DNA from: a virus
Taxonomy: Duplodnaviria; Heunggongvirae; Uroviricota; Caudoviricetes
IMG/VR virus record: IMGVR_UViG_3300028453_000023
Strand: one strand, 5' to 3'
Length of the DNA: 7,174 nucleotides
Both the position numbers and the translations under genes were made by a program. Numbering within the stretch: position 1 is the stretch's first letter; each line of letters begins with the position of its first letter. Under the pieces are notes generated by a model. The model worked only from the letters and a program-made list of their open reading frames with translations, did no database searches and was not told the DNA's origin. Positions 5,546 through 5,833 of the stretch are shown here, one piece after another.

Positions 5546-5615
5546 AGCCTCCTCCCGGGTCCAGAACGCACTCAGCCGGGTATGGTTCAGCCCATTTTTC
5601 CCGGCGTCTCATGCC

Positions 5616-5743
5616 GCAAATGTTAACTGCTGCCTGGTTAACATTTGCTGAAAAAGCCAGTTAACATTTTTTCCGCGCAACAAACTGAATAATAAAGATA
5701 AAAACCGCAAAAATGCCCGGACAGCCAGTTAACATGTTAACTG
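5616..5743. repeat. Array of GTTAAC-centred repeats (core CAGTTAACAT in both orientations) in the HNH-terS intergenic region; candidate terminase-binding (cosB-like) or operator sites
   Basis: Seen directly. A perfect 12-bp inverted repeat, gcaaatgttaac (5616-5627) and gttaacatttgc (5637-5648), with a 9-bp spacer. A 12-bp direct repeat GCCAGTTAACAT at 5656-5667 and 5724-5735. An 18-bp perfect palindrome CAGTTAACATGTTAACTG at 5726-5743. An AT-rich tract (5668-5712) lies between copies. Confidence 0.6.
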
Positions 5744-5833
5744 CCCTGAAACGGGAATTTTTTCTCTGCGTGAGAGGGGGCGCGGTGTCCGGAGCGATCG
5801 TTTTTTACGCCGAATGATACCCCCCCGGTCGGG

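Follow-up and report, generated by a model that had tools for sequence, protein, structure and literature searches.

What is the 288 bp non-coding interval between the HNH endonuclease gene and the small terminase gene (terS) of a tailed phage for, and which protein reads the GTTAAC-centred repeats that it carries? The interval (positions 5833 to 5546) lies in a stretch of 7,174 nucleotides from the IMG/VR record IMGVR_UViG_3300028453_000023, the whole of which is referred to here as the window. The first-pass annotation had taken it for a candidate cos region whose repeats might bind the small terminase (TerS) or, alternatively, serve as operators of a late-gene regulator. Our analysis points, with a probability of roughly 0.7, to the cos site of an HK97-type, HNH-assisted packaging system of BP-4795/1717-like lambdoid prophages, equipped with a putative multi-site cosB that would be read by TerS.

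Gene neighbourhood and predicted cut site

The last gene before the interval encodes an HNH endonuclease (5834-6199, minus strand; PF01844, E=7.5e-7), whose homologues are so annotated in hundreds of E. coli genomes and which, by analogy, is the expected cofactor of cos cleavage. On the other side lie terS (4982-5545, minus strand; PF03592 Terminase_2, E=1.7e-8) and the gene of an HK97-like large terminase, terL (3820-4985, minus strand), in which PF03354 and PF20441 were matched on two fragments; full-length TerL homologues of 553 aa have both domains. The terL of the window holds exactly 100 N at 4440-4539 and measures 1166 bp, N run included, against 1662 bp in BP-4795, so that the N run is read as an assembly gap hiding about 600 bp and not as a deletion. 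Directly after terL comes a fusion of 645 aa between a prohead protease (Peptidase_S78) and the major capsid protein (Phage_capsid) at 1819-3756 on the minus strand, of a kind that has been reported for Gifsy-2-like heads; no portal gene lies between terL and this fusion, and the order in BP-4795 is identical. A divergent YlcI/YnfO (DUF3950) ORF at 6241-6441 on the plus strand is transcribed against the late genes, and its sequence (IRFPNHMIEQINIALE...GNFSAWVIEACRRRL) resembles a ribbon-helix-helix DNA binder. Between the lysis region and the HNH gene there is also an ORF of 113 aa with a TonB_C domain (6573-6914, minus strand), probably a moron gene, which has a hydrophobic, lipoprotein-like N-terminal segment ending in ...LVMGC and the TonB domain at its C-terminus; its homologue in the Stx1 phage Lys8385Vzw is annotated as 'protein TonB'.

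More than 90 phage records, among them BP-4795, 1717, 2851, YYZ-2008 and many Stx1a/2a/2c prophages, are 95-99% identical to the window over the 601 bp that enclose the interval. The same type of cos was found in about a quarter of the complete E. coli genomes searched (1282/5426), with up to eight copies per genome, and most Stx1a/2a/2c phages of the BP-4795/1717 type that have been sequenced carry it. In all matching phage records and E. coli genomes the interval is flanked by an HNH endonuclease and a terminase small subunit. The Rfam search of the interval returned no family at E<=1 and the scan for sense-strand promoters and terminators returned no match; a reading of the interval as a structured RNA, promoter or terminator was dropped on these grounds.

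The position of the cut is indicated by Lys8385Vzw (MT225100), a near-identical relative for which the cos end has already been published: induced particles were sequenced and PhageTerm called cos with 3' cohesive ends of 10 nt, CGCCCCCCCT, according to the passages of PMC7946995 that deal with its termini. The GenBank record of this phage ends in ...GGACACCGCCCCCCCT / ...CGATCGCTCCGGACACCGCCCCCCCT and starts with CTCACGCAGAGAAAAAATTCCCG.../CTCACGCAGAGAAAAAATTCCCGTTTCAGGGCAGTTAACATGTTAACTGG...; it can be aligned base for base with the window, carries the same five GTTAAC boxes after its left end, and its junction falls between 5775 and 5774 of the window minus strand. Because the break in the record is found at exactly the homologous place and the ends were mapped by PhageTerm, we put cosN at 5775-5784 (minus strand) with the predicted 10-nt 3' cohesive end CGCGCCCCCT, which differs by one substitution from the last 10 nt of Lys8385Vzw; the left end of the packaged genome is predicted to be C5774. 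The mapping comes from one PhageTerm analysis of this relative, and in a search for further phage records starting at the cut only Lys8385Vzw was recovered. A paper on a Serratia phage was set aside, as the cos sites described there are unrelated. With ends at 5784/5774 the cut falls inside the G/C-rich segment that had been flagged from the letters alone, and the earlier proposal of a cos region between the HNH gene and terS thereby gains the support of mapped virion ends. The boxes sit on the terS side of the cut and are predicted to be packaged first.

An alignment of 22 loci, which represent at least 10 enterobacterial genera, shows a conserved core of about 100 bp around the cut. Its left flank (5785-5826, minus strand) consists of a G7 run (5820-5826), CGATCGC (5794-5800) and GGACAC (5785-5790), and is conserved across the 22 loci even where the upstream gene is a different one; we infer that it is an element for positioning terminase and HNH or for termination (cosQ-like). 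The right flank (5752-5774, minus strand) reads CTCACGCAGAGAAAAAATTCCCG, has an A6 tract at +12 to +17 from the cut, is nearly invariant in the 22 loci, and contains an invariant AGAAAAAATTCCC at +10 to +22.

The GTTAAC box array

GTTAAC occurs in the window at 5622, 5637, 5660, 5728 and 5736, with a sixth, unrelated copy at 7108; these six copies compare with an expectation of 0.91 +/- 0.85, and none of 200 shuffles reached six. The longer core CAGTTAACAT is exact at 5620-5629 (minus), 5658-5667 (plus), 5726-5735 (plus) and 5734-5743 (minus) and degenerate, with two mismatches, at 5635-5644, which bears out every coordinate given previously for the five copies in both orientations. Together these span about 120-125 bp, at +32 to +155 from the cut. 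The boxes nearest the cut, S1 and S2, form a perfect 18 bp palindrome, CAGTTAACATGTTAACTG (5726-5743; +32 to +49), which we propose, by analogy with lambda, as an R3-like TerS site. It is followed on the minus strand by an A/T-rich tract with phased T5/A6 runs (5668-5725), by box S3 (ATGTTAACTG, 5658-5667, minus strand) and by S4, the degenerate copy (ATGTTAACCA, 5635-5644, minus strand); the last box, S5 (ATGTTAACTG, 5620-5629, plus strand), is inverted with respect to S3 and S4. S5 and S4 together make up a 12 bp inverted repeat (5616-5627/5637-5648) whose intervening GGCAGC is invariant, and a direct repeat of 16 nt (5655-5670/5723-5738) is 94% identical; repeat analysis thus recovered the inverted repeat, the direct repeat (first noted with a length of 12 bp) and the palindrome of the earlier description. 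Beyond S5 lies the terS leader (5546-5619, minus strand) with the Shine-Dalgarno sequence GGGAGGAGG at 5548-5556.

Base composition likewise matched the earlier description of an AT-rich tract between the repeats and a G/C-rich segment with G5 and C7 runs next to the HNH gene: GC content is 35-40% at 5660-5720 and 55-68% at 5750-5900, and the plus strand has its G5 run at 5776-5780 and its C7 run at 5820-5826. We propose, again by analogy, that the A/T-rich tract acts as a bend. The best match to the IHF consensus within it (5678-5690) has two mismatches, and the 42 matches observed against 39 expected are at chance level; an IHF site is retained as a speculation only.

S4 and S3 (5638-5667, plus strand) mimic a weak sigma-70 promoter, TTAACA-18-TAACAT (9/12), directed away from terS, a resemblance that is probably incidental to the sequence of the boxes. 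The ATG of the palindrome opens an ORF of 24 codons for a hydrophobic peptide, MLTGCPGIFAVFIFIIQFVARKKC (5661-5735, minus strand), which is conserved neither in length nor in sequence (13 codons in type B, defined below, and 30 in P0033) and has no good Shine-Dalgarno sequence; its lack of conservation suggests the fossil of an ancestral terS start and probably not a gene.

The proposed search for these repeats in related phages found all boxes kept in more than 100 distinct sequences. Their number varies within the clade from five to six between lineages, and a few sequences have three or four strict matches. In two loci with the window's box type, L253 (P0010) and L024 (P0033), an extra box, AAATGTTAACYGG, lies between S3 and S4 as the result of a 10 bp insertion, giving six in total.

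Outside this clade the layout is simpler. TerS homologues of 40-49% identity were found in Atlantibacter, Enterobacter, Erwinia, Kluyvera, Serratia, Phytobacter, Kosakonia, Rouxiella, Pantoea, Citrobacter and Salmonella phage FSL SP-016, and the shared layout runs through a G7-9 run, ...CGATCGC..GGACACC, a C-rich 10-mer, CTCACGCACAGAAAAAATTCCC, ...GGAGGGTGTAAAC and then ATGTTAACAGC. These short-spacer relatives in other genera have no array and a single palindromic box overlapping the terS start: in FSL SP-016 and 15 other loci the ATG of an imperfect palindrome, GTAAACATGTTAAC, is itself the terS start (Met-Leu-Thr-Ala-Gln-Lys-Arg-Lys). In the window clade the palindrome is equally far from the cut, and about 190 bp (the A/T tract, three boxes and a new leader) intervene before a terS that starts GTG CTG ACA, likewise Met-Leu-Thr. 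Since the relatives have a single palindrome at the same distance from the cut, the complex array appears to be a derived, clade-specific expansion of a simple site. The AACATGTT of the palindrome is invariant in the 22 loci; conservation of the single palindrome in short-spacer relatives is also explicable by the coding and translation signals at the terS start. Short-spacer relatives (L005-L021) have two copies of GTAAACAT in direct orientation, at about -75 to +10 relative to terS: one (GAGTAAACATCGATCGC) is placed some 25 bp to the left of the cut, the other at the terS start. In the simple form of the site the pair may provide TerS with a binding site on either side of cosN; in the window the left copy has become degenerate (GCGTAAAAAACGATCGC, 5794-5810). 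Gene context in Burkholderia relatives also speaks for the cos reading: their records either begin 28-62 bp before the terS start or stop about 55 bp from the terS end.

Two box alleles and the small terminase

We followed TerS variants of 66-89% identity back to the contigs that encode them and aligned the spacers, which separated two types of locus with a common array architecture and a common cosN core. Type A comprises the window, P0014, P0021, P0010, P0033 and relatives from IMG/VR and metagenomes, with the box core ATGTTAAC and the TerS residues A(T)25/T32/V(I)35; type B comprises P0005, P0012, P0022, P0031 and two chromosomes, with the core ATGTTTAY and E25/S32/C35. Type B is rare (11/5426 E. 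coli genomes), and scans of IMG/VR and metagenomes for further specificity types yielded type A, a few type B and no third type. In type B, S3 becomes ATGTTTAT, S4 becomes ATGTTTAC and S5 becomes GTAAACAT. When the window is compared with type B, the five specificity positions, one per box, are identical in none of five cases and always change from A:T to T:A, whereas the remaining core positions are identical in 30-31 of 33 (91-94%) and the rest of the spacer in 73-76 of 170 (about 44%); TTCA.T.TGTT in the A/T tract is conserved between the types. Independent decay cannot yield such a concerted switch within a diverged spacer, which argues for one reader of all five boxes.

The residues that change together with the boxes (A25E, T32S and V35C from type A to type B) lie in the N-terminal helix-turn-helix (HTH) of TerS, encoded at about 5423-5491. 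In the AF2 model of the protein pLDDT exceeds 90 for residues 1-50, with helices at 19-25 and 33-41; in this model helix 2 ends with residue 25, residue 32 is the N-cap, and helix 3 has residue 35 in third place. The best fold match of this domain is the DNA-binding domain of SF6 TerS (4zc3; TM 0.85, rmsd 1.6 A, 30% identity), and the Foldseek matches to 4zc3/2cmp have a probability of 1.0. The earlier statement that the small terminase bears an HTH is thus upheld, by PF03592 together with the fold match, and the window TerS is an SF6-type HTH protein and not of the HK97 type; a search of PDB sequences with it at E<=1 gave no match to HK97 TerS. Between the HTH and the C-terminal domain lies a hypervariable linker of low model confidence (pLDDT below 50 at residues 61-92; window codons ~70-105), which has a tandem duplication of 15 aa in E. 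albertii (P0001) and is shortened by internal deletions in several E. coli proteins, of 138-140 aa.

In the 113 distinct long-spacer sequences box type and TerS residues go together without exception: ATV, ATI or TTV goes with ATGTTAAC in 109 and ESC with ATGTTTAY in four, which amounts effectively to two classes. As only two specificity types were found, the association may reflect a single evolutionary event and, with 80-200 bp between the boxes and the HTH codons, linkage would be enough to keep the two together; the real argument is the concerted change of all five boxes. Such an exchange is also seen in nature. E. coli 2014C-3097 is identical to the window in YlcI (66/66), nearly so in HNH (120/121) and identical in the cosN core, and from about +25 onward it has a type-B spacer and TerS with E25/S32/C35. 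In the type-B locus L251, TerS is 89% identical overall, and the divergence is concentrated in a cassette at window positions ~5770-5420 (spacer and HTH codons) between flanks that are ~90-100% identical to the window; within this cassette the terS leader is the most divergent part, at 32-60% identity against about 90% for the flanks. YlcI/DUF3950 was ruled out as the box reader, being identical in a type-B locus and absent beside another type-B array, and HNH was ruled out as the specificity partner by its near identity in a type-B locus. Comparative support for the earlier proposal of small-terminase sites is thus strong, and the GTTAAC boxes are most likely docking sites for TerS.

The first-pass annotation had offered operators of a late-gene regulator as an alternative, and this found no support: YlcI and HNH stay unchanged while the boxes switch with the TerS HTH, and the late genes of lambdoid phages are transcribed by read-through from pR', so that an operator at this place is unneeded. 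A related explanation, which we regard as unlikely, accepts the region as cos and supposes that TerS reads only the A-tract block near the cut, the boxes binding some other factor as operators or for translational control of terS. It draws on HK97, in which the TerS site is a single 15 bp A-tract element at +15 to +29 (PMC11331095), a position comparable to that of the A6 tract in the right flank here, and on the invariant block at +10 to +22 itself. The absence of the array from short-spacer relatives with a nearly identical HTH and the weak antisense promoter-like match formed by the repeats also speak for it. That block, like the whole right flank, is identical in both specificity types and so cannot set specificity; it may help to position TerL/HNH or contribute to the shape of the DNA. 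Against this explanation, both box types occur in one and the same host, which means that a host factor would leave the concerted switch unexplained; the adjacent candidate binder YlcI (100% identical) and HNH (99% identical) do not change with the boxes, only the TerS HTH does; and the TerS of the window has an HTH domain that HK97 TerS lacks.

That the boxes are non-functional relics, namely duplicated ancestral terS 5' ends (ATG TTA AC encoding Met-Leu-Thr) left by an insertion of about 190 bp in the Stx-phage lineage, would account for the coincidence of the palindrome ATG with the terS start in 16 relatives, for the Met-Leu-Thr at the start of the window terS and for a box number of five or six depending on lineage. 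We nevertheless consider it very improbable, given that the box cores are so much better conserved than the spacer around them, that they persist in more than 100 distinct sequences, and that all five boxes of the second allele share the same transversion where relics would decay independently; a duplicative origin is compatible with a present function. The membership of TerS in Terminase_2, with its SF6-like DNA-binding domain, brings to mind headful packaging from a pac site, the mode of SPP1/SF6, and the SPP1 pac likewise consists of repeated boxes in bent DNA. Such a reading is scarcely credible in view of the fixed 3' cohesive ends that PhageTerm assigned to the near-identical Lys8385Vzw, as given in the published account of its termini, and of an HK97-type TerL accompanied by an HNH gene, as in cos systems.

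Proposed packaging model and related systems

With TerS as the favoured reader of the boxes, packaging at this locus may be pictured as follows. From what is known of the family, genes and packaging direction would share the minus strand, with packaging heading to terS and terL. The terminase would cut concatemeric DNA at cosN (5775-5784) to leave the 10-nt 3' overhang, TerL and HNH making the staggered cut with the conserved core of about 100 bp as their substrate. The putative cosB would lie downstream, in the end packaged first, as S1/S2, the A/T tract and S3-S5 (+108 to +155), all built on the core ATGTTAAC. By analogy with lambda cosB and SPP1 pac, an oligomeric TerS would dock its N-terminal SF6-like HTH domains on S1/S2 and S3-S5 and wrap or bend the DNA, the phased A/T tracts, possibly with IHF, would bend it as well, and TerL/HNH would be placed at cosN. 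Box sequence and HTH recognition residues would jointly set packaging specificity, with at least two allelic specificities.

The cos of Lys8385Vzw is essentially the same element as that of the window. HK97-type packaging is assigned from three hallmarks, the 10-nt 3' overhang, the adjacent HNH gene and the HK97-like TerL. In HK97 cleavage at cos is stimulated by the HNH protein gp74 (PMC11331095), and 49 bp separate the cut from the terS that follows it. The two systems have in common the order HNH, cos, terS, terL, the length and polarity of the overhang, an A/T tract a few bp past the cut and a TerS site (here the candidate boxes) on the packaged side. They differ in that HK97 TerS, gp1, has no HTH and reads one 15 bp site through its central tunnel, while the window has an SF6-like HTH protein, which sets it apart from the gp1 type, and five boxes over about 125 bp; no similarity of the window to HK97 TerS or to the HK97 cos sequence was detected.

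The arrangement of the boxes resembles that of lambda. In lambda and phage 21 the R sites of cosB and the recognition-helix residues of TerS define packaging specificity, and lambda-like phages have complex cosB forms with three R sites (lambda, Monarch) as well as simple ones (N15) (PMC4669245). Like lambda cosB (R3-I1-R2-R1), the window has several short sites in both orientations between cosN and terS and, after the first of them, an A/T-rich segment that is proposed to be bent; as in lambda and 21, alleles differ jointly in the bases of the sites and in residues of the recognition helix, and complex and simple forms coexist within one lineage. Lambda, in contrast, has 12-nt 5' overhangs, the winged-HTH protein gpNu1, a lambda-type TerL and no HNH, against the 10-nt 3' end and Terminase_2 TerS here, and its IHF site is proven whereas the IHF-like match in the window is at chance level. 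By analogy the array would work like lambda cosB, although it is outside the lambda lineage as judged by end type and TerS fold. With SPP1/SF6 the window shares the Terminase_2 family of G1P and the fold of its DNA-binding domain; those phages package headfuls from a pac cut and have neither HNH nor cohesive ends, unlike Lys8385Vzw with the cohesive ends reported for it. The element is best described, by these comparisons, as a putative lambda-like multi-site cosB on an HK97-type TerL/HNH 3'-cos machine, with an SF6-type HTH TerS as its likely reader.

No paper with the palindrome sequence turned up in a full-text search of the literature, and the passages of PMC7946995 that were searched give the cohesive end and no box array or TerS site; the array, the allelic switch and the evolution from simple to complex form thus appear undescribed in this literature. 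A new kind of mechanism is not revealed, and a specialist would not be surprised. The natural pair of alleles, a one-base change in the boxes with three HTH residues, offers a test of how SF6-type small terminases read sequence, which is still debated; the HTH of SF6 TerS, the closest solved fold, has been reported to contact DNA in a largely sequence-independent way, to go by the title of ref. 12 in PMC11331095, and this speaks against a sequence-specific reading of the boxes by TerS. A known cut site and likely boxes allow phage genomes of this type to be oriented correctly and help to predict which terminase packages which prophages or cos-carrying elements.

A wider proposal, to which we give slightly less than even odds, is that some 350 bp, made up of the spacer and the ~45 codons at the start of terS, are exchanged as a packaging-specificity cassette that sorts co-resident prophages into incompatibility groups. 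Its two alleles would then be carried on otherwise near-identical cosN, HNH and terL backgrounds, and the array would have been amplified from a single ancestral TerS site overlapping the terS start codon. The A/B pair bears on cross-packaging among co-resident Stx prophages and, if the cassette is real, it would decide which defective prophages are cross-packaged and mobilised in pathogenic E. coli.
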